Shown here piece by piece: positions 18,312-64,000 of a stretch of 64,000 bases of DNA. Position numbers and translations under genes: made by a program. The notes beneath the pieces were generated by a model. The model did no database searches. It was not told the DNA's origin and saw only the letters and a program-made list of their open reading frames with translations. The stretch covers positions 3,658,001 through 3,722,000 of the forward strand of contig CM038998.1 of NCBI GenBank assembly GCA_017499595.2, in the 5' to 3' direction. This stretch comes from Psilocybe cubensis. Lineage: Eukaryota. Every line of letters begins with the position of its first letter. The first letter of the stretch is position 1.

Positions 18312-18374
18312 CTCCCCCCTGTTCTGACAAGTCTCCAGAATAAAGAAAAATAAAGCAAAACAGAGAAAGAAAGA

Positions 18375-21267: not shown

Positions 21268-21787
21268 ATGACTTCTGATCCCCAAATCACTCCATTGAAC
21301 TCAACCAACTACAACACCTGGGCAGGCCAGATGACCGCCTATCTCCAGTCTAAAGGGATATGGCGCATTGTCAGCGGTGCTAGAGCACAGCCAACGCTCT
21401 CAGACAAGCCTACTGCTCAGGAGGAAGCTTTGCTTGAAACCTACTTTGAGCAGAGAGACAAAGCATGTGGTTTGATCTATCTCAGTTTGGAGAATGATCA
21501 GAGGGTTCATGTGGAAGCCATCAAGGATGATCCTATCAAGATGTGGGATGCCCTCGCCGCTGTACATCAGCAAAAGCGCCCTGGCAACCGCTTTAATGCA
21601 TATGATGATCTGTTCTCCATCCGAAAGGAGGAAGGTGAAAACCTTCAAACCCTGATCAATAGAGTTGAGCAAGCCATATTGCTAATTCAGCAGCTTCGCC
21701 CTAAGGGGTTTGATCTGGCTAAGCTTGATGAAGAGCTTGCTTCGCTTGCTCTGGTCAGGGCACTCCCAGAAGAGTACAGTTCATTTG
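21268..21787 (+). pseudogene. gag: Copia C1 gag N-terminal part (interrupted by C2)
   Basis: Matches the N-terminus of the 1382-aa ORF up to PEEYSSF. Confidence 0.95.
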
Positions 21788-32697: not shown

Positions 32698-32760
32698 TCT
32701 TTCTTTCTCTGTTTTGCTTTATTTTTCTTTGTTCTGGAGACTTGTCAGAACAGGGGGGAG

Positions 32761-33138
32761 TGTTAAAACTGCTCTCTATGTCTCCCTCACTTTGCTATCT
32801 TATCAGATTAGATTACTTTCTTCTTATCTTCATTTGCTCTCCAGACCATTCTAGATACATGATATTTATCAGTCCATAGACTGGTCTGGACCGGACCAGA
32901 GTAGACCTAGGTAGACCAGAGTACTTGAGTCTACACAGTATATAGTCACTCTAGTTTACATTCTGAAGTCCCCAGTTACTCACTTCGGACTTCAGGTTAG
33001 TTTGTTAGCACTTTGCTCAATTCATCCAGTTACTCACTTCGGACTTCAGACGCTTCGTGCTCGCTTATTCCTGCGCCCTGCGTTCTATAACTAGGTCGCC
33101 GAGTGGCTCACACTGCCCAGAGCTCGCCTGCTTCAACA
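32761..33138 (+). repeat. Copia C1 3' LTR
   Basis: Preceded by PPT CAGGGGGGAG and followed by TSD TAAAC. Confidence 0.96.
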
Positions 33139-35168: not shown

Positions 35169-35568
35169 TATTGTGAATTGCAAAGGAACACATAAGTAGA
35201 TGGATACAAGTGTTGGTAGTAATGTGTACAAATGTGTAATAATGTGTGGAAACAAACTAGGCATTACTCGGAGCTTGGGGTGTGATGTGAGCGCAAGTTG
35301 AAAAAACAAAGTTAAACTAGCCTAATTTAAAAGGTGTACTTTTAACTAGAAATAACTCAGGGATTAGGCAACGGGGGCCCGCTCAACTGAGGTTAACAAG
35401 TCGCGTAAGGCGTGCTCGTTCAACCCTACTAGCAGCGGCAATGTATGGCCGGGCCTGGTAGAGGATAAAAAGCAAAAAAGACTAAAATGACCGTTTTGTG
35501 AAAACTATGCAGAAAGCAACTTGGTTCGCAAAACACGGAATTGGAGTGCTTAGAGCACGGGGCCCATA

Positions 35569-35911
35569 TGTTGAAGCAGGCAAGCTCGGGGCAGTGTGAG
35601 CTACTCGGAGACCTAGTTATAGAACGTAGGGCGCAGGGATAAGCGAGCACGAAGCGTCTGAAGTCCGAAGTGAGTAACTAAGTGAATTGAGCAAAGTGCT
35701 AACAAACTAACCTGAAGTCCGAAGTGAGTAACTGGGGACTTCAGGATGTAAACTAGAGTGACTATATACTATGTAGACTCAAGTACTCTGGTCTACCTAG
35801 GTCTACTTTGGTCCGGTCCAGACCAGTCTATGGACTGATAAATATCATGTGTCTAGAATGGTCTGGAGAGCAAATGAAGATAAGAAGAAAGTAATCTAAT
35901 CTGATAAGATA
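35569..35911 (-). repeat. Copia C0 5' LTR (truncated)
   Basis: LTR sequence stops at CTGATAAGATA. The adjacent PBS has lost 3 nt. Confidence 0.9.
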
Positions 35912-41500: not shown

Positions 41501-42134
41501 CCTTGATGGTCTGGGCATCCGGTTGGAGGTTGATGGTATGGTCTCAGGGACATTGGGGTGGCAGTCTATCAAATTCGGACTTCTCAAACACTGGGGCAAA
41601 GTGTGTGTAGTTTTGTTAGCTCATTAATGTTGACACAAAGCAACTTGTTGCTAGGGTCAATGGACTCACTCACAGATAGCTCTTGCCCATTCCTCCACGG
41701 TTGGCGCATCTTCCTTGGGGGCAGCCTTATCATCGTCATCACAGCCGTCATCATGCTCCGCACAGGAGGCAATGCAACACTGCACGTTAGCATCAGGATG
41801 GGCCTGACAAACAATATCAGAGCCACAGGACAGGGGACAGTGGGAGAAATACAGTCTGGCAAGCTTCCAGTCAATGTTTGGGTTGTGGAAGCGGAGCCAC
41901 AAGAGGCCGAGAATGACATTGGAAGAGCCTGTATTGGTGATAGAGAGGCACAGATTCTTGACATGGTCTCCAATAGTGATTTGGAGTGTAACTGTATGCG
42001 TGATTGAACCTGCACTATTGTGTGAACCATCAACATTATAGACTGTGATGGGGTGAGGCAGGGGCGTGAGTTCAGTATTGAGGTGAGCAGCAAATTTGGA
42101 ATCAATGTAGCAGCCAGAAGCACTGCTGTTAAGC
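38570..42134 (-). mobile_element. pol: Degraded Ty3/gypsy pol, family E (PR-RT-RH-INT)
   Basis: PFFFVKKKDGSLR, KLDIRWGYNNV, YMNDILI, ILSDHCNLQYF, GHPG, VVVDRLSKM. Cut at the protease active site by the foldback element at 42135. Confidence 0.9.
39000..39900. other. Unassigned ~0.9-kb non-coding insertion in the gypsy E integrase (possible solo LTR)
   Basis: The integrase frame (..WPTLVVNCVL / YVDSCVA..) is interrupted here. No clean TSD found. Confidence 0.5.
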
Positions 42135-44807
42135 CACTAGTACCTACCACTTTTTATGATAAAATATAAGCAGATGCTAGCACCCTCATATTTATTTTTC
42201 TAGCCAAGGGTTAATTAATATAAAATTCTAATAACAAGTTATGATATGAATTAAATTTTTCTTTTCATTCTTGTCAGACAGATTTATCATATTTTGCTAT
42301 AAATCTATCATAACTTGCCATAAATTTATCATATATAGATAGATATTAGATATGGAAATTAATGATATATATCATTAAACACATGGCAATATTATGATAT
42401 AGAATGATATGAAAATTATGATATAGGGTCTATTAGACAGATTTATCATTATTTGCCATAAAATATATCATTAGCAAATGATATAGCCAATATTAGCTAA
42501 ATTATACTTATCTTATCTTAGATTATCTATCAGATAATGATTATCTAACAGGCTATCTTATTAGATAGTACCTAGTTATTTTTATAAAGATCTGATCTAG
42601 GCATCTATATCAATGACATCACTGCTTAGCCTTCTCTTTTGCTCCAGCCCCTGGCTCTATAAATAGAGCTCATCCTATGCTACTTTTGGGCATTGCTGGC
42701 AATAGATTGGGCGCTTTTGGGAGCATTTCTGGACCATTTTCCTTGGTTTTTTTTGGTAGACCTATAGTTTTAAAGTGTTCCAATCCAATTCTGAAATTAG
42801 AATTGCAATATCTTTGCTCATTACTATGTAATTAAGCGTACAATGTTTTATTCAAAAAGCGCACTTTGAATAGCACCCTCCAAGGGCTGGCATGTACCTT
42901 TTTGACTATGCCATTATTTATTATTTATGTTGGACGGAGTACATGCCAAGTTACAGCTCAATTGGAGCACTGAAACCTATTGAACTAAGATATGCACCCT
43001 ACCCCTCCTCCTACCCCTTGTACAAATGCCTTCCTGATCAGATAAATTTATGCCCAACCAGGGCTGGGTAGGCGTCCATTATACCAATTTTTAGAGTCTA
43101 AAATCTTGGTGCAATTCCAAAATTTAAGAGTACTATCCCCTATCCTCTCTAGAATTTGTATGTTTTATTATGGGATAGAATGGCCATTTCTAGCACATAT
43201 AGGTATGTAAATCTGCTCTATATAGTACCACAGACGTAATACATATCTTTGAAACATTCAGAATGAAGGAGAACACCTTGGTGATAAGGCTAATAAGATA
43301 GTATTGGATATGCAACATAATATGACCATATCACTGCTTATACTTCACCAAAATGCACATATCTTACATTCACAGATAGCTACTAAGGTTCCCTACATAT
43401 TATATTCATCCTGTTAAATGGCCAGAACGCTTAACAAGATGGTACAAGAAGAATAAGCATTATTGTTCAAAAATGGAGAAAAAGCAAAATTGATGTAAAA
43501 AATAACATTTATAAAATACATAAACTATACAGCTGTGTAGCCCTAAATTACGCCTATCTGTGGTATATAGACTCATGGAAATCCAATGAGTATAAGCTGA
43601 GATATATCAAAATGTATCTCGGAGAAAGGCCAAAGAGGTGATCACAAACAAAGCATAAATAAAGGCCAATATCCATCTGGGTCTCTGATGGGTTCTTCAA
43701 TACCTTTCTTTCCATATTTCAACAACCACTGGTCCGATGCACAACATCCTTGATGTTTTAGATAGCTACAATTTGAGGCTATACTATTCTGCTTTTATAT
43801 TTCCTAATCATAAACATTTATTTATGGTAAATGCAAAAATACTGTGCATTTTAATAAAGAATGATATTCTCTCTACAGTATCTCATCTGATGGATGGATC
43901 TTTTTGAGCACTAAGAATGATATTTAGGAGGCGTTTATAGGTATATGTAGACATCAAGAATATAATTTATGATGAAGTATTTATAGAAATATGGCCTGAT
44001 CAATAACCTACCATACTTCTTCTCATACCCTCTCTTAAATCAGTATGTTTCCTTGTTGAAGATGGCTTTCAAGGCTAAATTCTGTATTTTATATACTGTT
44101 AGTAGTAGATCTACATGTCTTTCAATGGTCTAAGAGTCTATCCTATCCCATAATAAAATACACAAGTTCTGGAGGGAGTGGGGAGTAGTACCCGTAAATC
44201 TTAGAGTTGCACCAAGGTTTTAGGCTCTAAAAATTAGTATAATAGGCTCATAACCAATACTAGCTGGGCTTGAATTTATCTAATCAGGAAGGCATTCATA
44301 CAAGGAGTAGGAGGAGGGGTAGGGTGCATATTCTAGTTCAATAGGTTCTAGTGCTCCAATTGAGCTGTAACTTGGCATGTACTCCGTCCAACATAAATAA
44401 TAAATAATGGCATAGTCAAAAGGGTACATGCCAGCCCCTGGAGGGTGCTATTCAAAGTGCGCTTTTTGAACAAAATATTGTACGCTTAATTGCACAGTAA
44501 TAAGCAAAGATATTGTAATTCTAATTTCAGAATTGGATTGGGACACTTTAAAACTATAGGTCTACCAAAGAAAACCAAGGGAAACGGTCTAGAAATGCTC
44601 CCAAAAGCGCCCAATCCATTGCCAGCAATGCCCAAAAGTAGCATAGGATGAGCTCTATTTATAGAGCCAGGGGCTGAGGCAAAAGAGAAGGCTAAGCAGT
44701 GATGTCATTGATATAGATGCCTAGATCAGATCTTTATAAAAATAACTAGGTACTATCTAATAAGATAGCTTGTTAGATAATCATTATCTGATAGATAATC
44801 TAAGATA
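42135..44807. mobile_element. Foldback (long-TIR) non-autonomous DNA element, copy FB1 (right arm truncated)
   Basis: Starts CACTAGTACCTACCACTTTTTATGATAAAA. Arm 42514-43048 is inverted at 44273-44807. Inner arms and core are homologous to FB2. Confidence 0.85.
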
Positions 44808-45816: not shown

Positions 45817-47550
45817 CTCCCCCTCAAACCAAAGTTAATTTTGGTGTATAAAGTTGTACTTGTATGGAAAACAAGAGTATTATGCTCCTAAGACTAATAC
45901 CAAATAGTGGCCAGATTACGTGCAAATCATACACAGCATATGTAACCCTATAGTATTAGTCTTGGGCATGCTTTTTTGATAAGAATTATATTCTTTTTGT
46001 TATTTATTTTTGACTGCATACTATATATTCCAAATAATAAGATATGCTTTAACCAAACCTAATTTCTTTGATTCATAATTTTGTCTATATTCTCAACAAC
46101 ATGTAGGATAGTAGAAGCTTGGAGTATCAAATAACTAAAATCCTATCAATTCTTTAAAAAAAATTATTGGATGTTTTTAATCATCTCTATTTGCATGGGA
46201 TGTAATATTAAAAGAGGATGGAGTTAGGAATACTTAATATAGTATTTAGATCACACCTACTCATACCAATAGAAAGTAATACTAGTGTCATGTAAGAGCC
46301 ACTATTGATTAATACCAACTTATTCAATAACAACAATACCTCCATTATATTGCAAAAAATGTTTTTTTACATACTAATAGATTTAAGCACTTATCTGCTT
46401 GTTTAACTATTGCATTTGTAAATGCTTGTGGCATTACCAAAATCTTAAAAGATTTTATTCTTATTATGCTTACAGATTGACAAAACTTGTTTTTTGTTTT
46501 TTCTGCTTTATGTGCATCTCTTAAGCCTATATAGATTAAATCAAAAACCACTATATTTCCTTTATTGTCTACCAAAAAGGATGATAATTTTAATTTTCTT
46601 TCTATTGTCTATTATTAGCTTTTAAAAAAATTGAACAAGAGCTTGAAAGATGCTTATGTATATTTTTTTATATTTAAGGCTTCACAAATGACCATGAGCA
46701 TTAGGGCATGGTTAGTTTTTAACTATACTTCTTACATTAATTATTTATTTTTCTACTGTAGGATTTAATTTTAAAATGTTTTGGCCAAACCTAGCAAGTA
46801 ACAAACACCAACTTTTCAACCTAGATTTGACTTAAGTAGATAGTTGTAAGTTAGGCACAAGCTAATATATTTTGAATAATACTCAAATAAATCAATAAAT
46901 TTGTGTTGACCTCATTTTTCTTCTATATAGTATTGAAGTCATAACAGATCTAGCTTTTGAACTGCCTTTTGACTTGCTATATAATAAATTTGGCAATGTT
47001 GGAATAAATAATTATTTAGAATATAAGCTTCACACAAGTGTTATATATTAAGAGTATAATATAATACTTTTATGATGCAAAAATAGCAGATTATATTATT
47101 AAGTTGTGCTGCATTTAATATAAAGATGACATGTATTGGCTTGGTATCTTGATATTACATAATAAATCTTATATAAAACTTTTATTCCCATTTGTATCCA
47201 AAACACACCAAGAGTCAATTGCATGCACTTATTTATGAATAAACTATACTAATTTTCATAGTTAAAATAGCTAGCACTCTCTCTTTAAATATATTCAGAT
47301 GAAGTTTATCACATAAATTACATTGATTAATACTAAGAAGCTACATATATTAGCTAATTTTATCTATAAATACTGGGTTTGAGTCTAATACCATTGATTG
47401 TTTTTAACTTAATCTTTTGAAATTTTCTTGTTTGTAATATAAAAGTGTCACATGCTGGCATATTACATAAGCAGTAATGTTGCTTTGAATTTTGTAAATG
47501 ATTTGCAACTTATTTTGCTAGATTTGATAAAAAACTGGCTGTTATACACT
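45817..47550 (-). mobile_element. Extremely AT-rich relic, probably copia RT/RNase H
   Basis: Lies next to the PPT and LTR. Only faint motifs remain and boundaries are approximate. Confidence 0.45.
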
Positions 47551-47779
47551 TATTTTAAATTATAAAACATTTGTTTTAAAAATATATATTAATAATGTAA
47601 TATCCGTCAAGATGGACACTTTTAAGGTCTTTGTTTTTATGGATATTGGGGCTAAGTGGAGCTAGATTTTAAATTTTGAGTCATGTGGTTCTAATCATTT
47701 CTTGGGTACACATGTTTGCCTAGGCATTTTGGGAAGTTGTAAAAGAAAAGGCAAAAAATCTTTTTAGGAGAAAAAACAC

Positions 47780-48610
47780 AGTTCTGTCCTAAAGTCAGCA
47801 GCAGAACCTGTTAAAAAATATATTATTGTCACAAGAGGCAATGTATTTGCTAAAACAGTTGATAACAGTAGCTCTAGCCACAATCTTTGTTATTTGAATT
47901 TTGTTTTCCTTGTACAGACAATTAGCCTTGTGTCTAGGTAATAAAAAAGAAAAATTTGAAGCAGAAAGAGATACCAATGCGCATTAAATAGTTTTGCAAA
48001 ATTTCTGGAGCTCCAGTTTGTTGAGCCACATGTCCTTGCTAATGCGCATTAGGCTATGGAAAGAAACCAAACATAAAGTAACAAAAAGGATGTTATTGTA
48101 ATTGGGGGAAAGAAAAAAGTGTTGGACAGTTCCACCAACTCCAAGGAGGTAATAGCATAAGCTTGAGAAGTGGGCATAGCCCTGAGCTTTGTGCATCCTA
48201 TTAGTGTTTTAACAACAAGAAGATGTTTTTTCATGTTGCAAATCAATAGGTAGTAAGGCTCCAAATGATTAACAATGCCTGAAAAATAGGACTTTACAGA
48301 AAAAGATTTAATGTGATGGCATATATAGACAATAAAGAAACTTAAAGTATCTGGGGAAGGATTGGTGGCAAAATTATATGAATAGTAGAAAGAGAGATAA
48401 GAATTAAGCATAAATAAATAAGAGGCTGAAGAAGAGAAAGAAAGTTCAATAGTATGGCCCAGAGCAATGACATGGTATTGTTTAAGCTTGGAGAGGGGCT
48501 ATGCATCCCTAATAGGTTGTTGGGGTGGAACCAAAACAGCTGACATGTCAATCTTCTTCATACTTTAGTATCAAATGTGGTGGGTTGAAGAAAGAGATGG
48601 ACAGGGTAGG
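47780..48610 (-). pseudogene. DIRS/Ngaro-type element: end of RNase H and N-terminus of tyrosine recombinase
   Basis: QQPIRDA*PLSKL..IALGHTIE..LNSYLSF..PSPDTLSFFIVYICHHIKSFSVKSYFSGIVNHLEPYY..LVVKTLIGC resembles the basidiomycete YR N-terminal (SAM-like) region. Confidence 0.75.
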
Positions 48611-48749
48611 TGTTAGTATATTTTATTCATCTTCATCTTTTCTTCTTTGCTTTTCATTTCACTCATTATCTGGTTATTATCTTATCACCACTCTTCATCC
48701 AAAAGCCTCTATTCTTATTCAATTTAAGTAGTCATACTGCTGACCTTGT

Positions 48750-52491: not shown

Positions 52492-55259
52492 CACTAGTCT
52501 CTACCACTTTTTATGATAAAACAATAGCAAGTGTTAGCACACTCTTTTTATAACTGTTGATGGTTTTATCACAAAGCAAAATAATAAGAAGACTGGTCTA
52601 TTTCTCATAAGTTTACTTTGCTTTTTCAAAGCCTTTTTCATTAGATAATACCCTTCTTTCTCATTATCTTTAGGGCGCTTTTTCATTACCTTTTGATTAG
52701 ATACTAGCCTGGTTATTTGATAAGATTGTTCTACATTAATATATCTTATCTTTGCTTGGTCATTTCTGATGCCATGCCATCAAATCAGGAACACTGTGGG
52801 TACTTCTAGGCCATGTCTATCAATCCATCAAAGCTATTATTAAATAAACTTTTCTCTCCTTGGCCCCTTGGTCTATAAATAGTGCTCATCCTATGCTACT
52901 TTTGTGCATTGCTGGCAATGGATTGGGCGCTTTTGGGGGCATTTCTAGACCGTTTCCCTTGGTGTTTTTTGGTAGACATATAGTTTTAAAGTGTTCCAAT
53001 CCGAATATGAGATCAGAATTGCAATATCTTTACTCATTATTGTGCAATTAAGCGTATGATGTTTTGATCAAAAAGTGCACCTTGAATAGCACCATCCAGG
53101 GGCTGGTATGCACCATTTTGACCATTTCATTATTTTTTATTTATGTTAGACGGAGTACATGCCAAGTTTCAGATCAATTGGAGCAGTGGAACCTATTGAA
53201 CTAGGATGTGCACCCTACCCCTCCTCCTACCCCTTGTACAAATGCCTTCCTGATCAGATAAATTCAAGCCCAACTAGGATAAAGTAGGCGCTTATTATAC
53301 CAATTTTTAAAGCCTAAAATATTGGTAAAACTTCAAGATTTAAGGGTACTACCCCTACTCCCTCCAGAACTTGTGTATTTTATTATGGGATAGGATGGGC
53401 TCTCAGACCATTGAAAGACATGTAGATCCACTACTAACAGTACATAGAGTCCAAAATTTACCCTTAAAAGCCCTCTTCAACAAGGGAACATACTGATTTA
53501 AGGGGGGTATGAGGATAGGTATGGTAGGTTATTGATTAGGCCATATCTCTACGAATACTTCTTTGTAAATCATATTCTTGACGTCTACAGATACCTATAG
53601 TTGCCCCCTAAATATCTTTCTTAGGCTGCAAAAAGACCCGTCCATTAGCTGAGATGCTGCAGAGGGAATACCATTCTTCATCAAAATGCATAGTATTTTC
53701 GCATTTACCATATATAAATGATTATAATCAGAAAATATAAATGCAGGATAGTATAGCCTCAAAATGCAGCTTTCCAGAACATCAAGGATGTTGTGCATCG
53801 GACCAGTGGTTGCTGAGATATGGAAACAAAGGTGTTGAAGAACCCATCAGAGACCCAGATGGATATTGGCCTTTATTTATGCTTTGTTTGTGATCACCTC
53901 TTTGGCCTTTCTCCAAGATACATTTTGACATATCTCAGCTCATACTCATCGGATTTCCATGAGTCTATATACCACAGATAGGTGTCATTTAGGGCTACAC
54001 AGCCGTATAGTTTATGTATTTTATAAGTGTTATCTTTTACATCATATTTTGCTTTTCCTCCATTTTTGAACAACAATGCTTCTTCTTCTTGTACCATCTT
54101 GTTAAGCGTTCTGGTCATTTGGAAGTATGAATATAATATGTAGAGGACCTTAGTATCTATCTGTGAATGTAAGATATGTGCATTTTGGTGAAGTATAAGC
54201 GGTGATATGGTCATATTATGTTGTACATCCAATACCTTTTTATTAGCCTCATAACCAAGGTGTTCCCCTTCACTCTGAATGCTTCAAAGATATGTATTGC
54301 GTCTGTGGTACTATATAGAGCAGATTTACATACCTATATGTGCTGGGAATGGCCATTCTACCCCATAATAAAATATACAAATTCTGGAGAGGATGGGGGG
54401 TAGTACCCTTAAATCTTAGAATTGCACCAAGATTTTGGGCTCTAAAAATTGGTATAATGGACGCCTACCCAGCCCTGGTTGGGCATAAATTTATCTGATC
54501 AGGAAGGCATTTGTACAAGGGGTAGGAGGAGGGGTAGGGTGCACATCCTAGTTCAATAGGTTCCACTGCTCCAATTGATCTGAAACTTGGCATGTACTCC
54601 GTCTAACATAAATAAAAAATAATGAAATGGTCAAAATGGTGCATACCAGCCCCTGGATGGTGCTATTCAAGGTGTGCTTTTTGATCAAAACATCGTACGC
54701 TTAATTGCACAATAATGAGTAAAGATATTGCAATTCTGATCTCATATTCGGATTGGAACACTTTAAAACTATAGGTCTACCAAAAAACACCAAGGGAAAC
54801 GGTCCAGAAATGCCCCCAAAAGCGCCCAATCCATTGCCAGCAATGCACAAAAGTAGCATAGGATGAGCACTATTTATAGACCAAGGGGCCAATGAGAGAA
54901 AAGTTTATTTAATAATAGCTTTGATGGATTGATAGACATGGCCTAGAAGTACCCACAGTGTTTCTGATTTGATGGCATAGCATCAGAAATGACCAAGCAA
55001 AGATAAGATATATTGATGTAGAACAATCTTATCAAATAACCAGGCTAGTATCTAATCAAAAGGTAATGAAAAAGCGCCCTAAAGATAATGAGAAAGAAGG
55101 GTATTATCTAATGAAAAAGGCTTTGAAAAAGCGAAGTAAACTTATGAGAAATAGACCAGTCTTCTCATTATTTTGCTTTGTGATAAAACCATCAACAGTT
55201 ATAAAAAGAGTGTGCTAACACTTGCTATTGTTTTATCAAAAAGATGGTAGGTACCACTC
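52492..55259. mobile_element. Foldback (long-TIR) non-autonomous DNA element, copy FB2, complete (2768 bp)
   Basis: Near-identical inverted arms at 52492-53264 and 54488-55259, plus about 135 bp of diverged inner arm. 7-bp TSD CTGGAAC (52485-52491 and 55260-55266). The empty site is visible in A1 (about 3605-3635). Confidence 0.92.
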
Positions 55260-57378
55260 CTGGAACTTGTTGTCACTGATACGTGTGGTCCGTTTCCTGT
55301 CAAAACTTCTCATCACAAGGAGTACTTTGTTGCATTTTGCTGTGCCAGTATGAAGGTTAGTAATGTACAGCTTACCGTAGATAAAACTGCTAAAACAATA
55401 TTTGAGGCTTTCAAGATTGTACAGGCTCAATGGAAAACACGCACTGGTTGCAAGATTCAACACTTTTGCTGTGATGGGGGACCCAAGTGGAAAGGTGTCT
55501 TCTTTGCTTACCTACTCACCCAAGGTATAGAACAAGAAGTAACACCAGCGCAGAAACACTAGATAAATGGGGAAATCAAGCAGTTCATGCGTACTATTCA
55601 GGGCCGGATGTTGGCAATGATTACCATGGCCCAGCTTCCTCTAACCTATTGGGGTGAGGCTGCACTCACTGCTTCATATCTGCTTAACATCACCAGTACC
55701 AACGAGGAAGGAATAATCCCTTTTGAGAACATGTACCATTGTCCGCCAAACTTATCCCACCTTTGTGTTTGGGGTTGTCAAGTCTTTGTCCACATACCAG
55801 AAGAGTAGCAATCAAAAATGGGAGCAAAATCTATTTAGTGCAAATTTATGGGCTACCCAACCAGTGGAAAAGGGTATTGCTTCCAACATATTGAGACTGG
55901 ACACTTTTTTGACTCTTCTAATGCCATGTTTGATGAAAACATGCCCTCTATTTCTACAATTCATTCCCCTTCCACTCCATTAGATTACTCTTTTCTTCTT
56001 TTTTTCCCCAATGTTTTTAACCCATCTTGTTCCTCTAATTCTTCTTATTCCAACATTTCTTCTAACAATTTGTCTTCCGCTTCCTCCAATTCAAATTCTG
56101 TACCAAATCTTGTTGCTACTTCTTCTGATTTAGATGCTCCCAAACTTTTGAATTCCTTTTCTTCATCATCTTCCGTTCTTTCTGTAGATATCAACATTAT
56201 TCCTCCTTCAACACCCGTTCAACAACCCACCTCTTCTGATCCACCACCTACACCTATTGCTTGACGCACTCTACCACCTCCTCAATCCTCATTGCATAAA
56301 TGTCATCCTTCCACCTGCGGTCTCCTCTACAATCAACTCTGTGATGCAAAAAAAGCCAAAAGTCAATCAATCATTGAATCACACAAAGCCAATAGTGAAT
56401 GAGCATCCTCAATGTTGTCACATCCCAACGAGCAAGGGGGTAACAAAAATTCTTTCATTTTGTTATGCTCTGTTAGAATGTTAGACAATTTTTGCTCTCC
56501 ATTGACTTTTCCCAACAATGCCGAAACATCTTTTGTATCACTAGACATTGAGGATTACCTTGCCAGAGATAAAGAGGCAATATTTGAGGCAACGCTACTC
56601 TCAGTACAAAGCAATCATAGGAGGAATTCTCTTGCCCCCAACTACAACCTCAAAATTCCTCCGGCCACATACCAAGAAGCAATGCAACACTCAGATGCTA
56701 AACAGTGGAAGATTGTCATCAAAAAAGAATTCAATATGCTAAAATCAATGAAGGTTTATATTGACGAAAAACTTCCAGATGGCGCACACATCATCAGTTG
56801 TTGATGGGTATTCAAATTTAAAGTATCAGAGGATGGTGGGGAACTCATATACAAAGCAAGGCTTGTAGCGCAAGAATTTTCTCAAAAATACCTTGTTGAC
56901 TACCACGACACATTTGCTCCTGTCTCAAAATCAATCAGCACCCGCGCCATTATAATTCACACCACTCTCAATAGATGGCACATTCAATGTTTTGATGCCA
57001 CGCGAGCCTTTCTATGGGGTGATTTGTCAGAAGTGATCTACATGAGATGCCCTCTGAAATACTCTTTGCCATTTTCAAAGAGAATATGGAGATTGGTAAA
57101 GTCGCTATATGGCCTTAAACAAGCTAGCAGCGTATGGTACATTTTCATTTGTTCTACCCTCCAAGATCTAGGTTTCAAATAGTTGGAGAAAAATCACGCA
57201 ACCTTTGTGTTTGAAGGAGCATGGAATGGCAAGGACATACAGTGCTGGCTTTGCATTCACGTTGACAATGGCTTAGGCACTTTGAACTCCAAATCTTTTT
57301 TCAATTACACCAAGGCAGAAGTCAATAAGAGGTTCGGAATCAAGGACTTTGGGCCCCTACAATCATACTTGGGTGTAC

Positions 57379-57827
57379 TGTCAGGGCAACACTATAATCA
57401 GTGTGACAAGGCCACCAACAAAGATTAAGCAAGAGAGAGAGAGAGAGAGCAGAGGGAGAGTAAGAGAGCAAGAGAGAATAAGAGAGTGAGAGAGATTCAA
57501 TGGTTCTAAGAGATCATACCAATGATAGTGGATATCCTAAGAGATTGAAGCTGAAGCTACAGCTACCTACAAGTCCAGTATTTATACTCTACAGCTATTC
57601 TAGAATATTCCCTACATTACATTATAAAGGAAGGTTAAAGAATAAAAGTGACATCATATAGAAAAAGGATGAGTAAGACTAGGAATCATATAGAATTTAC
57701 TAGAAAGAAGTGGAGCAAGAAGGCTGTGATGAAAGAAATAAACTATCTAATCAGATAATTAATAAGATAATGAAAGGATAAGATAATTCTGTGAAGATAA
57801 AGAGGGGAAACTGGAGAAACCCTGACA
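57379..57827 (-). repeat. Chromovirus F 3' LTR
   Basis: TGTCAGGG...CCCTGACA inverted termini, with a GA-rich tract inside. Confidence 0.97.
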
Positions 57828-60800
57828 TCACCCCCTCTCTAAGGCACATTTTCCACAATGTGCACATGGATGGGTTAGTTTAGAGGGTTTAAGAAGAGGA
57901 GGAGGTTCAGTAAAGTTAATAATAGGAGTAAAAGAAAGTCTATCAAAGGTCACAGCAGAAATCTTTCTAGGTGCTGAAGGATGTTTGGTATGGAAGTCCT
58001 TGATAGCCTTAGAAGCATTTTTCAAATGCTCTGCAGGCTCCCAAGTGCATTCTTCATTAGGATAGTTCTTCCACTTGACCAAATATTGAAGTTTGTTTCT
58101 AAAAAGTCTGCTGTCCTTGATAAATTCAACTTCCCACTCAGGATTTTCTCCTTGAATGACAGGAGGTGGTCTAGAAGGAGGCTTTCTTCCTACAATATCT
58201 GGGTGATAAGGTAGAAGTTTAACCACATTGAACACTGGATGGATTTTCATGGTAGATGGCAGCTTAAGCTCATAGGCATTAGGGCTAATAACTTTGGTAA
58301 TTTTGTAAGGCCTATATCTTTTATCATCCAATTTCTTGGAGGGCCTATCAGTTTTGAGGTCCTTGCCATCCAACCATACCAAATCCCCAACTTTGTACTG
58401 AGTTAGAGTACCTCTGTGTCTATTATAGAATTTAGCCATATCATCAGCAGCTTTTCTAAGTGCAGACTCTGCTTCTTTCCTAGCTTCTTCCATATTTTTC
58501 ACAAAGGTATCCACAGTGTCCATTTTACTATCTCTAAGGGGTTCAGTGCCCATTCTGGGATGTCTGCCATTATTGAGCATGAATGGTGTCTGCCTGGTTG
58601 AAGCCTGAACTCTATTGTTATAAGAGAATTCAGCTAGAGCTAACCATTCAACCCAATCATCTTGTCTATGGTTTATAAAGAGTCTAAGATACTGCTCAAT
58701 TTCTTGGTTAACTCTTTCAGTCTGACCATCAGTTTGGGGATGGTAGGCTATAGATGAGGCTGTCTGGATACCAAGTATTGAGTTGAGTTCTTTCATAAAC
58801 CTTAAGACAAACTGTGGACCTCTATCACACAGAATTTTAATGGGTAAGCCATGGTGTTTCCAGACATAATCTCTGTATAGTCTGGCTGTCCCTTCAGAAG
58901 TGACTTCATCTGTAGTAGGGATAATGTGGATCATTTTACTAAGTCTATCCACAACCACCATAATGGCATTATACCCTTGACATTCTGATAACCCCATAAT
59001 AAAATCCACAGAGATGCATTGCCAGACATCAGAGGGAATCTCAGTAGGAATTAAAAGGCCAAGAGGTTTGGCTGGAAAGGTTTTGGTTCTGTTACATCTA
59101 TCACAACCTCTGGTATAGGCTGCAATAAAATGTGACATTCCTGGCCACCAATAATTCCTAGAGACTAGCTCAATTGTCTTCCATTTCCCTGGATGTCCAG
59201 CAATGAAGGCATCATGGTGCAGTTCCACAATCTTTCTTCTAAGATCTTTGTCCTTGGGAACATACACCTTCCCCCTGTAGAGAATAAGGCCTTGTTCTTC
59301 TGACCATTCCTGTCCTTCAATCTTCTTGGTAGAAGATTTCTTGAGCTCCTGAACTGCCTTGACCACCTTTTCATCCATCTCCTTAGCTTCTCTAATCTTC
59401 TTAAGAAGATCATTTTCTGCACCAGTAATGGTAGCATGACCCTGCTTGAGAGCCTGGATTTTAAAGTAGGAAGGTTTGAGGAGAACTACATTTTGGTTAT
59501 CATTCTCTCCCTTTTTATGATCTGGTCTCCTAGACAAAGCATCTGGCTTGAGAGATCTTTTACCAGGCCTATGATAAAGAGTAAAATCAAATCTGGACAG
59601 GAAGAGTGACCATCTGGCTTGCCTTCTGCTGAGCTTTTGGGCAACCATAAAGTACTCTAAGTTTTTGTGGTCTGTCCAAATCTCAAAGGAATGTTGGGTT
59701 CCTTCAAGATAATGTCTCCATTCATCTAGTGCTCTGATAATAGCCAGCATCTCTTTGTCATGGATTTCATAATTCCTTTCTACTTCAGATAGACTCTTAG
59801 ACATAAAGGATACAGGATGCCATTTCCCATCTGATCCTTCCTGAGATAAAACAGCCCCAGTAGCATAATCTGAACTGTCTGCTTTAACTTTATATGGCTT
59901 GTTATCATCAGGGAAAATCAAGACAGGTGAAGAAGTGACTTTCTTCTTTAACTGGTCAAAGGCTTCCTGCTGTCTAAGACTCCATCTCCAGACTGTTCCT
60001 TTCTTTGTCAATTCATGAAGGGGCTTAGCAATGTCTGCAAAATCCTCTATGAACCTTCTATAAAAATTAACAAATCCCAAGAATGATTGGACATCCTTGA
60101 CATTTTCAGGTTCAGGCCATTTAGAAACTCCCTCTACCTTGACAGGATCCATCTCAATCCTGCCTTGTGAAATGATTAGTCCAAGATATTCAATTTTTTC
60201 CTTTTCAAATTCACATTTCTCTGCTTTAAGGTAGAGTTTATTCTGTTCTAGGATTTGCAGAACTTGCTTGACTACCTCTCTATGATGATCAAGAGTCTCA
60301 GTGAAAATTAAAATGTCATCCATGTAGACAATGACAACATTTCCATCAATGAGCTCAATAAAGATATCATTCATTATAGTTTGGAAGGTAGCAGGACTAT
60401 TGGTTAAACCAAAGAACATGACCAATGGTTCAAACAGCCCTCTATTGGTTCTAAAGGCTGCTTTCCATTCATCTCCCTTTTTGATTCTGACATTGTTAAA
60501 TCCCCACCTAACATCAAGTTTGGTGAAGTATTTGGCTTTGCTGAGTTTGGTGATAATGTCAGAAATCAATGGAAGGGGGTAGGAGTTCTTGATGGTCATT
60601 TCATTTAGTTTCCTATAGTCCTGGACAAGCCTAAGAGATCCATCCTTCTTCTTGACAAAGAATACAGGGGAGGCCATAGGTGACTTGGAGGGTCTAATCC
60701 TGCCAGACTTCAGATTTTCCTCTAAAAAGGCATCAAGTTCCTTTTGTTCATTGGGAGAAAGAGGATAAATCTTGGATCTGTAAGGTTCAGAACCAGGTTT

Positions 60801-61601
60801 CAGCTCAATAGCATGATCCCAAGGCTTTCTGTCTGGTAGCCTATCAAAAGATTCCTTTGAAAAAACACCTTTAAACTGATGATAGTGCTTAGGAACAGTT
60901 TCTTCAAAGGTTTTCTTAGGGGAATCAGCTTGCTGATGAGACTCTTCTGCTAATCTTCGAGACATAGTAGAAGTAGCATTAATAGACTGCTTCTGAGGAT
61001 GAAGGTATGAGATAAAAATTCTATCCTCAGGCTCAATCTCAGAATCAGAAGAATCTTCAATAGAATCTTCTTCTTCTTCATCAAATTGAGGGAGTTTCCT
61101 CCTTTTGACTGCAGCTATTCTCTGCCTCTTTCTTCTGGCTCTTTTGGCTTCCATTTGGCAGTCAGAGGGACATCTAATAAACTGGACATCCCCTGTCTTC
61201 CAATCAACATCTGGATTATGGTGCCAAAGCCAAGTATGTCCAATGATAGCAGATTTGTCTCCCAAGTCACAAACAGCAAAGGTGGCCCTTTCTGTATGGT
61301 TTTTGTGTACCATAATTAAGTCTACTTCCTCATGGATAGAGCCACTCTTGTTGAGAGTACCATCAATATTATAGACTGGAATGGCTCTAGGAAGTTTCCT
61401 TGTGTTGAGATTATGATACTTGACAAAACCAGAATGCAGAAAGAGGCCAGTAGCTCCAGAATCAAGCAAAGCATCAACAGATAACCTTTTCTCTGTGTCC
61501 ATTGTCTTTAAGATGACAGACAAATGGGTAGAGGTTTTAGGATTATGGTTGAGGATGTAGATCTTTTCAGGGAAGGTAGAAAGAGAGGAAGAAGAAGACA
61601 T
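57828..61601 (-). CDS. pol: Chromovirus F Pol (PR-RT-RNase H-INT-chromodomain), 1257 aa
   Basis: LLDSGA, YMDDILI, DSSDYATGAVL, HHD..GHPG..CDRC, DRGPQF, QTDGQTER, and chromodomain WEVEFIKDSR..YLVKWKNYPNEECTWEP. Confidence 0.96.
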   Translation of the reverse strand: MSSSSSLSTFPEKIYILNHNPKTSTHLSVILKTMDTEKRLSVDALLDSGATGLFLHSGFVKYHNLNTRKLPRAIPVYNIDGTLNKSGSIHEEVDLIMVHKNHTERATFAVCDLGDKSAIIGHTWLWHHNPDVDWKTGDVQFIRCPSDCQMEAKRARRKRQRIAAVKRRKLPQFDEEEEDSIEDSSDSEIEPEDRIFISYLHPQKQSINATSTMSRRLAEESHQQADSPKKTFEETVPKHYHQFKGVFSKESFDRLPDRKPWDHAIELKPGSEPYRSKIYPLSPNEQKELDAFLEENLKSGRIRPSKSPMASPVFFVKKKDGSLRLVQDYRKLNEMTIKNSYPLPLISDIITKLSKAKYFTKLDVRWGFNNVRIKKGDEWKAAFRTNRGLFEPLVMFFGLTNSPATFQTIMNDIFIELIDGNVVIVYMDDILIFTETLDHHREVVKQVLQILEQNKLYLKAEKCEFEKEKIEYLGLIISQGRIEMDPVKVEGVSKWPEPENVKDVQSFLGFVNFYRRFIEDFADIAKPLHELTKKGTVWRWSLRQQEAFDQLKKKVTSSPVLIFPDDNKPYKVKADSSDYATGAVLSQEGSDGKWHPVSFMSKSLSEVERNYEIHDKEMLAIIRALDEWRHYLEGTQHSFEIWTDHKNLEYFMVAQKLSRRQARWSLFLSRFDFTLYHRPGKRSLKPDALSRRPDHKKGENDNQNVVLLKPSYFKIQALKQGHATITGAENDLLKKIREAKEMDEKVVKAVQELKKSSTKKIEGQEWSEEQGLILYRGKVYVPKDKDLRRKIVELHHDAFIAGHPGKWKTIELVSRNYWWPGMSHFIAAYTRGCDRCNRTKTFPAKPLGLLIPTEIPSDVWQCISVDFIMGLSECQGYNAIMVVVDRLSKMIHIIPTTDEVTSEGTARLYRDYVWKHHGLPIKILCDRGPQFVLRFMKELNSILGIQTASSIAYHPQTDGQTERVNQEIEQYLRLFINHRQDDWVEWLALAEFSYNNRVQASTRQTPFMLNNGRHPRMGTEPLRDSKMDTVDTFVKNMEEARKEAESALRKAADDMAKFYNRHRGTLTQYKVGDLVWLDGKDLKTDRPSKKLDDKRYRPYKITKVISPNAYELKLPSTMKIHPVFNVVKLLPYHPDIVGRKPPSRPPPVIQGENPEWEVEFIKDSRLFRNKLQYLVKWKNYPNEECTWEPAEHLKNASKAIKDFHTKHPSAPRKISAVTFDRLSFTPIINFTEPPPLLKPSKLTHPCAHCGKCALERG

Positions 61602-61705
61602 GATTTCTGCACCAGAATCTGAAGACTGAGGATCAAGTTTGTCAATTTCATTTTCTAGTACATTAAATCTATTCTATTGGGACATGTCTTTCACCAATGG
61701 TGCTT

Positions 61706-62809
61706 CTAAAAATTTTTCTTTTCCTCATCTTTCTGCTCCTTGCCTTCCAAGATTAATTTTCCAAAGTAGTCAGCCAGTTCTTCATGGGTCATAGCATTGA
61801 TGTTAACTGATGACCTGCAGTTTACAGCCTTATGACCAGGCTTTCTGCACTTGAAGCAAACAATTGGCTTAACTGACTTCCATCCAGAGTCAACCTCCAT
61901 GGGAACTATATCTGGTTGCTTTGCCTGAGCACCAAAGGTCCTAGAGCTGCTATTGGAAAAGACTGGAGGATTTGGAGTAGGCTTAGGAACAGCCTTGGGA
62001 GTTGGGGCTTTAAGGAAGGGAGAAGAGGAGGAGGAGGAAAGAGACTTGGTAAAGGCCTCACTCTGTCTCCACTGCCTATCTAGCCTAGTACTCCATTTAA
62101 TCCATCCATCCAAGGTTTTGGGCATGTCAGGAACATAGTAGACTGCATTCCTGAGATTTTCATTTAGCCCAGCCTTGAATTGATCTACCAAAGCAGCATC
62201 ATTATACCCAGTATCTGAGATCAGAGCCCTGAAGCTAGCAACATACTCATCAGCAGTCTGTCTGCCTTGCTTGAGCATGTGCATTTTATGCTTAGCTGTG
62301 TTGGAGGGGTCTGGATCTGCAAACACTTCCCTAAATTCATAAACAAAGTCAGCCCAAAGACCTTCTTGGGACTGAGCATTGTCTATTACTTTAGTCTTCT
62401 CATATGCCCACTTCCCAGCAGTACCTCCTTTCATATGAGATAGAGCACAAATAACTTTCTGAAAGTCATCTGTAATCCCTTTCCCATAGAAATATAATTT
62501 AAGCTGACTGAGGAAGTTTTCTGCCTTTTCCATAGAACCATCAAATGGATCTGGAGGTGAGACTTTAATGGCAGAGTGTGAACAGGAAGGGGCAACATGA
62601 GGGGTAGGGAAAGAGTGAATATCTAGAGCAGCAGGTGGTGGTGGTGGTGGTGGTGATGGTGACTGACTGACTGGTTGCTGAGGGTATGGTGGAGTGGATA
62701 ATGACTGCTGCTGCTGTCTAAGAAAATTCAACTCTTGGGTAAGGAGCTGGACCTGATGCATGAGCTCTTCCACAGAAGGAGTGGTGGGAGGCAATTGGGA
62801 GGGGTCCAT
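61706..62809 (-). CDS. gag: Chromovirus F Gag, 367 aa
   Basis: PDPFDG, LKQGRQTADEY..F, PMEVD and CFKCRKPGHKAVNC knuckle. Confidence 0.95.
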   Translation of the reverse strand: MDPSQLPPTTPSVEELMHQVQLLTQELNFLRQQQQSLSTPPYPQQPVSQSPSPPPPPPPAALDIHSFPTPHVAPSCSHSAIKVSPPDPFDGSMEKAENFLSQLKLYFYGKGITDDFQKVICALSHMKGGTAGKWAYEKTKVIDNAQSQEGLWADFVYEFREVFADPDPSNTAKHKMHMLKQGRQTADEYVASFRALISDTGYNDAALVDQFKAGLNENLRNAVYYVPDMPKTLDGWIKWSTRLDRQWRQSEAFTKSLSSSSSSPFLKAPTPKAVPKPTPNPPVFSNSSSRTFGAQAKQPDIVPMEVDSGWKSVKPIVCFKCRKPGHKAVNCRSSVNINAMTHEELADYFGKLILEGKEQKDEEKKNF

Positions 62810-63306
62810 GTCTATGGGTAGGGGTAGGTAGACTCTCTGATGTGTGTGTGGGAGAAGCTATCTACTGAAAGTGCCCTTGAAACTATACTAAGTATTCTAA
62901 AAAAATATCTATCTACTGGATATCCAGTTGTCACACCACTCAGGGCTCTAAACCTAGGATCACAGGGTTGCTGGATATTTCCTAGACCACCAAAAACAGA
63001 ACACTAGTAGGACTGTGTCTGCCCCAATAGTTGGTATCCCTATCTACTAAGCTCACACACAGCACACAACAGAGAGTAGGAAAGATGATAAGCCAAAGGT
63101 CTTGAGGAAAGGTCTTGAGGAAAGGTTTTGAGGAGGATGTTGAAGATTGGTGGAGATGTAGAGATTGGTAAGAAGATTGGTGAAGAGGTTGATGAAGAGG
63201 TTGGTGGGTTGGAAGTGGAGGAAGAAGGTTGAGGTAATGGTGTTGAAGAGGTTGAAGAGGTGAAGAGTTTGGTGTTGAAAGAGAGATGGTGGAGTTGTCT
63301 TGAGAG

Positions 63307-63317
63307 AGCTTCAATCT
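63307..63317 (-). promoter_or_regulatory. Self-priming PBS AGATTGAAGCT
   Basis: Complementary to LTR 63483-63493, which begins 34 nt downstream of the start of TATAAATA (63520-63527, minus). Confidence 0.8.
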
Positions 63318-63319
63318 TC

Positions 63320-63768
63320 TGTCAGGGCAACACTATAATCAGTGTGACAAGGCCACCAACAAAGATTAAGCAAGAGAGAGAGAGAGAGAGCAGAGGGAGA
63401 GTAAGAGAGCAAGAGAGAATAAGAGAGTGAGAGAGATTCAATGGTTCTAAGAGATCACACCAATGATAGTGGATATCCTAAGAGATTGAAGCTGAAGCTA
63501 CAGCTACCTACAAGTCCAGTATTTATACTCTACAGCTATTCTAGAATATTCCCTACATTACATCATAAAGGAAGGTTAAAGAATAAAAGTGACATCATAT
63601 AGAAAAAGGATGAGTAAGACTAGGAATCATATAGAATTTACTAGAAAGAAGTGGAGCAAGAAGGCTGTGATGAAAGAAATAAACTATCTAATCAGATAAT
63701 TGATAAGATAATGAAAGGATAAGATAATTCTGTGAAGATAAAGAGGGGAAACTGGAGAAACCCTGACA
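63320..63768 (-). repeat. Chromovirus F 5' LTR
   Basis: Direct repeat of 57379-57827. Confidence 0.97.
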
Positions 63769-64000
63769 TGTACAGTACAAAAGGAATTTTGAGACTCGAG
63801 AATTATGGATCCATCAAGAACCATACATTGCAAATGTTCTCGATGAGTATAATCTTCTCAATTGCAGCACTGTTTCTACTCCAATCGACACTACCTATCC
63901 TTTTGGCTGTGACACCAACACATTTCTAGAAATTCCCAACATCAAATTTACTTTCCAACATCTCATTGGTTCTCTTTTATTCATTCAATGACACTTGCGG

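Follow-up and report, generated by a model that had tools for sequence, protein, structure and literature searches.

DNA methylation is usually viewed as a defense that transposons cannot escape by changing their sequence, because CpG is so common. In vertebrate viruses CpG depletion is partial and attributed to RNA sensing, and CpG-free vectors are man-made. Among fungi, published work describes a strong CpG preference of methylation in Basidiomycota (review PMC13297926, relevant passages), and a preprint reports Dnmt5 to be inactive on DNA lacking CG (10.1101/149385, relevant passages). Avoidance of a defense's target motif by transposable elements (TEs) has so far been proposed, in the passages drawn on here, as no more than a weak statistical tendency: in Microbotryum, which has TpCpG RIP-like hypermutation, the TCG target is scarce at nonsynonymous positions of TE lineages (Hood et al. 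2005, as cited in Horns et al. 2012, PMC3318451). For an Agaricomycete, the same passages of Horns et al. report finding no RIP-like process (PMC3318451). A literature search returned no chromovirus of the Tf1/sushi group reported as CpG-free. Tf1, the namesake of that group, uses a self-priming mechanism and encodes a single gag-pol ORF.

How does a chromovirus from an Agaricomycete compare with these systems? The element analyzed here lies in a 64,000-nucleotide stretch of Psilocybe cubensis contig CM038998.1 (the window; all positions are window positions). Named homologs of the element and of a neighboring copia likewise point to an Agaricomycete host.

Anatomy of the element and of this copy

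In structure this is a complete Ty3/gypsy chromovirus (Metaviridae, chromodomain clade), lying on the minus strand, with the following features:

63320..63768, minus strand: 5' LTR, 449 bp, TG...CA, 0 CpG
63522..63527, minus strand: TATAAA motif in the 5' LTR (LTR 242-247)
63483..63493, minus strand: 11-mer AGCTTCAATCT in the 5' LTR (LTR 276-286), putative transcript 5' end
63307..63317, minus strand: primer-binding site (PBS), 2 nt past the 5' LTR, perfect complement of the LTR 11-mer
62810..63306, minus strand: 5' untranslated leader, 0 CpG, differing by indels between copies in run X18
61706..62809, minus strand: gag ORF, 367 aa, Ty3 capsid-like, CCHC zinc knuckle, TAG end, 0 CpG
61709..61715, minus strand: putative -1 frameshift heptamer A AAT TTT, directly before the gag stop, pol frame open across it
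61674..61676, minus strand: in-frame TAG of the pol frame in the Gag-Pol linker, Trp (MSQW) in 17/26 relatives
57828..61601, minus strand: pol ORF, 1257 aa counted from ATG, 1 CpG
60958..60959, minus strand: sole CpG of the element, in a CGA codon (Arg215 of pol), Gln in relatives
57828..57841, minus strand: polypurine tract AGAGAGGGGGTGA, adjoining the 3' LTR and overlapping the pol stop
57379..57827, minus strand: 3' LTR, 449 bp, 0 CpG
57374..57378, no strand: target-site duplication TGTAC, second copy at 63769-63773

Pol carries protease (DSGA at aa 47), RT (YMDD at aa 426; Pfam 316-477) and RNase H (540-671), followed by integrase Zn and core (784-955), SH3 (1072-1133) and, at the integrase C-terminus, a chromodomain (aa 1156-1205, 57987-58136; PF00385, E 2e-15). 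Pfam matches comprise Ty3_capsid, zf-CCHC, RVT_1, RT_RNaseH, Integrase_H2C2, rve, SH3_Tf2-1 and Chromo. The LTR pair is identical at 448/451 positions, in line with the roughly 99% given by an earlier sequence-only reading of this DNA, and its differences are three transitions. An uninterrupted, empty-site paralog of the target lies at about 1500-1540 of the window. The insertion sits within another retrotransposon, which fits chromodomain-guided targeting.

Pairing of the PBS with the LTR 11-mer suggests Tf1-like self-priming. The 11-mer, where sequence context would place the transcript start, follows the TATA box by about 28 nt. In a predicted fold of 63290-63493, the two 11-mers pair and the stem is extended (-39.1 kcal/mol), with a z score of only -1.74 and 9/200 shuffles as good. 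The heptamer lies within the gag/pol overlap, as expected for a -1 frameshift, and frameshifting there is predicted. GGATTTT occupies the equivalent overlap in three of the 11 relative loci inspected (L092, L027 and L012); its zero-frame phase (G GAT TTT) was derived by hand from context for L092 only.

The sequence-only reading had called the element coding-intact, which slightly overstates its condition: gag and pol are each open, whereas the passage between them is not. Pol lies in the -1 frame relative to gag, and the TAG falls 11 codons past the slippery site, ahead of the protease, so that the Gag-Pol fusion is interrupted in this copy. Judged by an uninterrupted Gag-Pol path, this copy is thus not autonomous. 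It also carries 11 substitutions, mostly G>A/C>T, at positions agreed in at least 27/29 relatives. Together, the premature TAG and these substitutions indicate that freedom from CpG gave the copy no protection from other damage.

The family is nonetheless young and multi-copy, as high read depth and many insertion sites indicate. Raw reads of run X18, from another organism, cover the element at a depth of about 1300-1700, against at most 60 over most of the flank. Loose read ends at the two LTR edges are heterogeneous there (440 reads at one, 1255 at the other, with a consensus agreement near 0.34); 29988 reads are at least 99% alike and 36721 are 95-99% alike. The element is present in 15 runs from 7 studies, and near-identical copies occur under nine organism labels, several of which may be related species or strains.

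Extent and origin of the CpG loss

Across 57379-63768 (6390 bp, 40.7% GC), an exact count found a single CpG against 262.5 expected, an observed/expected ratio (o/e) of 0.004. The Poisson probability of one CpG or fewer is 3e-112, and still 5e-14 at the lowest o/e among 80 metagenome relatives (0.13). GpC stands at an o/e of 0.82, which shows that the deficit is not a mere separation of C from G. Every compartment is affected: LTRs 0/449 and 0/449 bp, leader 0/510, gag 0/1104 and pol 1/3774, with about 258 expected overall. The purge also spans all codon phases. Arginine is encoded by 88 AGA/AGG codons and 1 CGA (88/89 AGR), TCG, CCG, ACG and GCG codons are absent from the element's ORFs, and codons ending in C number 0/461 before G-starting codons versus 302/1163 (26%) before other codons. 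As to the lone CpG, pol residue 215 is Gln in the consensus of 29 relatives, making CAA>CGA its likely origin. From 886 TpG/CpA sites at the LTR-derived divergence of 0.33%, our arithmetic gives about 2.5 new CpGs expected since insertion, and a single one therefore fits post-insertion mutation. The sequence-only reading had anticipated much of this by eye: one CG at 60958-60959 where a few hundred would be expected at roughly 40% GC, a CGA recently derived from CAA, and Arg written as AGA/AGG. It had staked its case on the computed CpG count proving exceptional, as it did.

Two intact neighboring copia elements in the same window have CpG o/e of 0.71 (5994-12237) and 0.60 (21788-27158), whereas older TE remnants have fallen to 0.15-0.48 with TpG/CpA excess; the contrast drawn earlier between a CpG-rich copia and CpG-decayed older elements thus stands. 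CpG is the most mutable context among the window's TEs: between paralog pairs, transition divergence at CpG exceeds that at other sites by a factor of only about 6-24 (0.25 versus 0.03 when pooled). The element's ratio of 1 CpG to 886 TpG+CpA would require a CpG decay bias of about 900-fold, and old TEs plateau at 0.15-0.48, so passive decay is too weak. Outside CpG, too, transitions strongly outweigh transversions between TE pairs of the window (up to 154 transitions : 8 transversions), a process that lacking CpG would not evade.

Is the CpG-free state derived, and was it reached with the proteins preserved? All nearest homologs are chromoviruses of the same clade, from fungi or soil metagenomes. 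A tree of 90 sequences places the element in a clade (SH-like support 0.98) in which nearly all other members are rich in CGN (CpG o/e 0.44-1.2). Its closest relatives with DNA have a CpG o/e of 0.6-1.2, and CGN:AGR ratios at shared Arg positions are 38:11 in L092, 21:3 in L038, 19:3 in L004 and 37:9 in L021. Because these nearest relatives are CpG-rich and mostly use CGN for Arg, the CpG-free state is derived. Of the Arg positions conserved in at least 27/30 relatives, 42/42 are still Arg in the element, every one AGR; at the 35 of these shared with L092, that relative has 26 CGN and 9 AGR. CGN>AGR is impossible via C>T or G>A, so transversions were needed at these sites. The age and spread of the state rest on K/(H+Q), a weak proxy based on amino acid exchange (3.0 versus 1.82 in an intact-ORF control of the CGN lineage), with close relatives (60-84% amino acid identity) compared at the protein level.

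A methylation-decayed or RIP-like mutated repeat looks quite different, and we reject that identity for the element. A gypsy family found by chance (G001) shows what mutational purging leaves: CpG o/e of 0-0.18 among its loci (2 CpG versus 367 expected in L094, which has no ORF of at least 150 aa), and TGA, CAA, CAC or TGC at the element's conserved Arg positions. Such wrecks carry 12-25 TGA stops per pol, with Cys, Gln, His or stop at conserved Arg sites and TpG/CpA o/e of 1.3-1.6. The element has no TGA in its frames, and its TpG and CpA o/e (1.1-1.2) do not exceed the background (window average 1.23-1.24; most decayed TEs 1.3-1.5). With Arg kept throughout, relatives CGN-rich and no TpG/CpA excess, the core proposal of a lineage that purged CpG under purifying selection is supported.

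Competing explanations

We lean toward the view that a young, multi-copy, Tf1/sushi-like chromovirus lineage in an Agaricomycete evolved complete CpG avoidance as evasion of methylation or mutation. Going by literature in which methylation in Basidiomycota falls almost exclusively on CpG, such evasion would be the selective agent, and lack of CpG probably makes the element invisible to the host's CG-specific DNA methylation. Basidiomycete 5mC would be set almost only at CpG by DNMT1-RFD and DNMT5, concentrated on transposons, and CpGs that carry it would be this genome's most mutable sites; a CpG-less retroelement would offer no substrate and so would incur no CpG methylation, no methylation-based silencing and no CGN>TGN/CAN deamination. 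Lineages favored on this account would have exchanged CGN for AGR by transversion and NCG for NCH, lost C|G codon junctions and purged LTR promoter and leader likewise, until a master copy stood at zero CpG. The element would otherwise live as a standard chromovirus, with a TATA-driven LTR transcript, self-primed reverse transcription, a -1 frameshift to Gag-Pol and integration with a 5-bp duplication. A bolder version, plausible though we hold it more tentatively, is that the lineage beat its host by deleting the whole CG-methylation substrate (promoter, leader and about 1,600 codons) while its chromodomain still lands it in heterochromatin, and that its rise to many copies across several related organisms follows directly from this.

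The strongest competitor, which we judge unlikely, invokes mutation only: long heavy CpG methylation, or a nearly fully efficient CpG-directed RIP-like mutator in a host it passed through, erased CpG while selection merely kept the proteins, with no selection for CpG loss and no present benefit. CpG is indeed the most mutable context here, CpG-biased transitions are documented for Agaricomycotina repeats (passages of PMC3318451, PMC4014442 and PMC4352252), and the G001 gypsies show that complete mutational purging exists in nature. Related chromoviruses, moreover, form a continuum of CpG o/e from 0.05 to 1.2 that includes a whole AGR-rich clade, so strong mutation pressure with purifying selection alone clearly goes far. 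However, the measured ratio of decay to creation predicts an o/e of about 0.15-0.4 rather than 0.004, conserved Arg codons changed family by transversion instead of decaying, TpG/CpA excess is absent, and the young copia elements at 0.6-0.7 show that no efficient CpG mutator acts now. AGR variants would also still be selected for robustness, at which point this account merges into evasion.

Selection at the RNA level, or otherwise apart from methylation, is a much weaker contender. Here a host factor would sense CpG in transcript or cDNA, as ZAP does in vertebrate retroviruses, some of which are CpG-poor, or a structural or packaging constraint would act. Depletion that is uniform over the transcribed unit and independent of codon phase agrees with this, but the 275 bp of U3 upstream of the putative start are CpG-free although outside the RNA 5' end (they are transcribed at the 3' end), and we know of no CpG-RNA sensor in fungi. 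CpG-specific TE methylation, by comparison, is well documented in the phylum (PMC13297926, relevant passages). Least probable of all is recent horizontal transfer from a donor with extreme CpG suppression, the composition being the donor's and not an adaptation here. In composition the element stands far outside the other TEs of the window, and near-identical copies span nine labels; several of those labels may, however, denote related species or strains, and the nearest homologs all belong to the same clade. We know of no genome with an o/e of about 0.004 in functional coding DNA, and transfer would leave the purge itself unexplained.

If evasion is correct, the element would be a natural "unmethylatable" transposon, and a functional 6.4-kb zero-CpG element beside CpG-rich, equally young copia elements of the same genome would be an extreme and clean natural experiment. 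It raises the questions of whether CpG methylation limits transposition in Agaricomycetes, which back-up silencing (H3K9me, RNAi) acts on unmethylatable DNA, and how quickly selection can rewrite some 90 Arg codons along with some 120 codon junctions. Fungal genetics would also gain from it a promoter and a set of ORFs that are naturally free of CpG. Where TE ages are estimated or methylomes analyzed on the assumption of CpG decay, the element counsels caution.

Comparison with known systems

The element shares the PR-RT-RH-INT-chromodomain order of Tf1/sushi chromoviruses (Tf1 of S. pombe, MAGGY), matches Lyophyllum shimeji proteins annotated as "tf2 type 1-like" at 54-56% identity, and resembles Tf1 in the candidate self-priming complementarity between its 11-nt PBS and an LTR-internal 11-mer. 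Tf1 has a single ORF, whereas in this element and most of its relatives a slippery heptamer precedes pol, which is read in the -1 frame. Like CpG-decayed or RIP-like wrecks (old window TEs, G001), it has a CpG content near zero; unlike them, it keeps its ORFs and all Arg, without TpG/CpA excess. Microbotryum offers a parallel, in the passages drawn on, as TE lineages depleted of a defense's target motif where mutation is nonsynonymous. There, in Pucciniomycotina, one trinucleotide is statistically scarce at nonsynonymous sites, whereas here CpG has been eliminated from synonymous and nonsynonymous sites as well as from non-coding DNA. Retroviruses with suppressed CpG and vectors engineered to be CpG-free are likewise retroelements or vectors that gain persistence or expression without CpG, and abstracts describe CpG-free synthetic DNA used to avoid silencing. 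In contrast to the vertebrate viruses and vectors, the purge seen here is natural, essentially complete and found in a fungus.

Extent of CpG loss in the element

How complete is the loss of CpG from the minus-strand Ty3/gypsy chromovirus at 57379-63768? A direct count over its 6390 bp (40.7% GC) finds one CG (60958-60959) vs 262.5 expected, an observed/expected ratio (o/e) of 0.004, in line with the near-total absence claimed by the sequence-only reading; CpG o/e of the whole window is 0.43. The Poisson probability of at most one CpG is 3e-112, and it is 5e-14 when the null is 0.13, the minimum CpG o/e of the 80 metagenome relatives listed. Simple segregation of C and G is ruled out by a GpC o/e of 0.82 in the element. 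An effect of codon usage is also ruled out, because the noncoding parts are purged equally: there are no CpGs in either LTR, the leader (510 nt), gag or the gag-pol spacer, and one in pol. Nor is the pattern a sequence artefact, as independent raw reads reproduce it at about 1500x.

The coding regions avoid CpG within and between codons. Arg is written as AGA/AGG 88 times and as CGA once, a bias already noticed by eye, and TCG, CCG, ACG and GCG are absent from the 499 tabulated Ser/Pro/Thr/Ala codons. None of the 461 codons ahead of a G-starting codon ends in C, vs 302 of the 1163 ahead of A-, C- or T-starting codons. The sole CGA encodes pol residue 215; 29 relatives have Gln as their consensus there, in agreement with the proposed origin of this CGA as a recent change from CAA. 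Given 886 TpG+CpA sites and an LTR-derived divergence of ~0.33%, simple arithmetic predicts ~2.5 new CpGs since insertion; therefore, the progenitor of the window copy probably had none.

Structure, damage and copy number

The element and its flanks comprise the following features:

57379-57827 and 63320-63768, minus strand: LTRs, 449 bp, TG..CA ends
57828-61601, minus strand: pol, 1257 aa, with RVT_1, RNase H, integrase zinc and core, SH3_Tf2-1 and Chromo matches and DSGA and YMDD motifs
61706-62809, minus strand: gag, 367 aa, with Ty3-capsid and CCHC matches
Adjoining the 3' LTR, minus strand: polypurine tract
Flanking the element, duplicated on both sides: target-site duplication TGTAC

By all structural tests applied, this is a Ty3/gypsy chromovirus. 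Its LTRs are identical at 448/451 aligned positions, matching the earlier estimate of about 99%, and the three differences are all transitions. A copia-like repeat at ~1500-1540 is a paralog of the target that carries no insertion; it equals the joined flanks except for one C/T difference. An 11-mer 2 nt past the 5' LTR is the perfect complement of an LTR-internal 11-mer (LTR 276-286) with TATAAA about 28 nt upstream, and the 11-mers base-pair in the predicted fold, within an extended stem (-39.1 kcal/mol, z -1.74). This arrangement resembles the layout of Tf1, which is self-priming through a primer-binding site complementary to its own LTR, and the element probably belongs to the self-priming Tf1/sushi group.

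Is this copy coding-intact, as first proposed? Both gag and pol are open, but an in-frame TAG interrupts Gag-Pol. The pol frame is -1 relative to gag, and a putative frameshift heptamer, A AAT TTT in the zero frame, lies directly 5' of the gag TAG with the pol frame open across it. GGATTTT occurs in the equivalent gag/pol overlap of 3/11 relatives with DNA inspected (L092, L027 and L012), its zero frame worked out by hand for L092 only. Just downstream of the heptamer, the pol-frame peptide APLVKDMSQ- is conserved among relatives; thus, translation passes through the gag-pol linker. In the window copy the codon right after this peptide is TAG (Trp in 17/26 relatives covering the site), and therefore this copy cannot make a normal Gag-Pol. 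It departs from at least 27/29 relatives at 11 positions, eight of which are G>A or C>T in type by our own codon reading. For one of the 11, Ser598 (Ala in relatives; place 59810), reads of the public sequencing run X18 carry the other letter (595/596 and 656/656), so at least this change is restricted to the copy or strain in the window.

How many copies does the family contain? The element's 31-mers appear in 15 public runs from 7 studies under nine coded organism labels, with a best word share of 0.76. Mapping raw genomic reads of X18 on the window (1.63 Gb read) placed 70388 reads, 29988 at least 99% alike and 36721 at 95-99%. Depth was about 1300-1700 over the element, roughly double over one LTR and at most 60 across most of the left flank. 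Heterogeneous loose ends at both LTR edges (440 reads at 57379, 1255 at 63768; consensus agreement about 0.34) point to many insertion sites, and we infer tens to over a hundred copies if the genome is 40-150 Mb. None of the substitutions listed in X18 reads (59810, 60195 and 60342) creates a CpG. The leader (62829-63260) is polymorphic in X18, with a 13-bp deletion at 63115 in 703/1636 reads and an A insertion at 62898 in 585/1374, so there are at least two subfamilies. In another run, X13, contigs over 59608-61488 diverge by 13-17% from the element and reach a word depth of about 3200-3300, so this sample contains a related family in extreme abundance. The element is also matched by five short contigs from what is guessed to be an RNA run, which says nothing on expression.

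Relatives and origin of the CpG-free state

Among 8000 candidates scored, 5941 were Pol homologs at E<=0.001, the best being 84% identical. Most are 5-6-kb metagenome or Logan contigs, and those with names are "Tf2-like" proteins from Lyophyllum shimeji (54-56% identity); the neighboring copia has named homologs in Sparassis, Taiwanofungus, Mycena, Trametes and Agrocybe. These names make an Agaricomycete host very probable. We compared 101 loci with DNA (29-60% identity to the element; metagenome relatives among the matches listed, 43-60%; viral_contigs and genome_contigs scans, at most 58%), and 30 closer relatives (P0001-P0030, 60-84%) as proteins only. CpG o/e spans 0.13-1.22 across the 80 metagenome loci listed and 0.05-1.21 across the remainder, with one outlier, L094, at 0.005.

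A 90-sequence tree places the element inside a clade with SH-like support of 0.98, its exact sister having support of only 0.17. The other members of this clade are almost all rich in CGN codons for Arg (CpG o/e 0.44-1.2), and a separate large clade is AGR-rich (0.05-0.64). At Arg positions common with the element, CGN:AGR counts in the most similar loci are 38:11 (L092), 21:3 (L038), 19:3 (L004), 17:4 (L093) and 37:9 (L021); thus, on codon comparison, the element's CpG-free state is derived. To reach it, conserved Arg sites had to switch from CGN to AGR, a change that involves a C>A transversion and is not a deamination product. Five metagenome/IMG-VR loci in a fungal chromovirus clade apart from the element (L099, L086, L058, L063 and L065) use 0-2 CGN vs 61-82 AGR codons at CpG o/e 0.05-0.19, and therefore strong CpG avoidance arose more than once among chromoviruses. 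As an amino-acid proxy for Arg codon family we used R exchanges, scored as K/(H+Q), which is 0.32 in the CGN-rich clade vs 2.16 in the AGR-rich clade and 3.0 in the protein-only close relatives. An intact-ORF control of the CGN lineage reached 1.82, so the value of 3.0 is only suggestive; the proxy hints weakly that the 60-84% relatives may share the CpG-free state.

Could passive decay in this genome have produced such a sequence? Retrotransposons lie nested in the window. The copia elements are CpG-rich, as the sequence-only reading held for copia C, and older elements are CpG-decayed, as it also held:

21788-27158: copia, LTRs 100% identical, 1433-aa ORF, 178 CpG, o/e 0.60
5994-12237: copia, 218 CpG, o/e 0.71
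Elsewhere in the window: older TE remnants, CpG o/e 0.15-0.48, TpG/CpA o/e 1.3-1.5

Across 12 paralogous TE pairs (21,074 aligned sites) there were 147 CpG<->TpG/CpA changes at 587 CpG sites (0.25), 634 other transitions (0.030 per site) and 131 transversions, and the ratio per CpG dinucleotide was about 6-24 in the three youngest pairs. A neutral equilibrium at 1 CpG to 886 TpG+CpA needs a loss-to-gain ratio of about 900. This is far above the measured ratio, and old TEs level off far higher in CpG o/e; therefore, passive decay in this genome cannot yield the element's state. A purely mutational purge is what G001 displays, a 6.7-Mb record whose title names an actinobacterial MAG chromosome. 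Its last ~2.3 Mb hold 105 gypsy-pol matches at about 40% GC; this tail resembles repeat DNA of a eukaryote after CpG>TpG hypermutation, either fused to a bacterial genome or labelled as one in error. The seven loci examined there (L094 and L102-L107, at ~4.38-6.65 Mb) have 0-47 CpGs (o/e 0-0.18) and TpG/CpA o/e of 1.1-1.6; in the best-scoring matches each pol contains 12-25 TGA stops, and L094 has no ORF of at least 150 aa. At 42 conserved Arg positions (Arg in at least 27/30 sequences of our Pol alignment with relatives), the G001 copies mostly have TGA, CAA/CAG, CAC/CAT or TGT/TGC, whereas the element has 42/42 Arg, all AGR; L092, an intact relative, has Arg at 35/42, with CGN at 26 of them. 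The element thus does not look like a purely mutational purge, and the difference supports the original proposal of a lineage that lost CpG under purifying selection.

Another gypsy family, distinct from that of the element, has left a remnant at 38751-42133 (minus strand; RT 55% identical, RNase H Pfam match) with a CpG o/e of 0.42, so the CpG-free state is not general to gypsies of this genome. TE paralogs 1517-3627 vs 55260-57377 and 42647-44674 vs 52863-54889 differ almost only by transitions (in an example pair, 27 CpG and 154 other transitions vs 8 transversions). Per-site C<->T differences in the TE pairs rank CpG (0.139) > CpA (0.098) > CpC (0.067) > CpT (0.051), CpA being the second most affected context; the transition bias suggests a RIP-like or deaminase process wider than CpG. 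Copia copies and 378-bp LTRs at 17935-35911 form dense direct and inverted duplicates of 98-100% identity (21784-25862 vs 33142-29064, 99.8%; 26781-28689 vs 28686-30594, 100%), reflecting either recent recombination/duplication or an assembly artefact. AT-rich stretches at 46001-48700 and 36001-37000 (26-37% GC; CpG 3 vs 58 and 2 vs 35 expected) have no overlapping ORF of at least 180 aa and no match to the element's Pol.

Possible role of CpG methylation, and known systems

Read at the sequence level, these results show a functional lineage driven to zero CpG in every sequence class, counter to its nearest relatives' habit and beyond neutral decay in the same genome. Host CpG-specific methylation, with its attendant mutability, would be the most economical explanation, and the benefit could lie in avoiding silencing, in avoiding mutational load, or in both. 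A 2026 review (PMC13297926) describes Basidiomycota as having mostly CpG methylation via DNMT1-RFD and DNMT5, concentrated on TEs; a preprint reports Cryptococcus Dnmt5 to be inactive on DNA without CG (10.1101/149385).

How does the element compare with systems already described? Our full-text literature search, with most subscription journals outside its coverage, returned no description of a CpG-free natural transposon. Horns et al. 2012 (PMC3318451) describe a CpG bias among transitions in repeats of Agaricomycotina; they also cite the scarcity of TCG, the target motif, in TEs of Microbotryum as a possible counter-adaptation. The chromovirus structure itself is already known; the novelty is that a young, multi-copy family has been purged of CpG completely.
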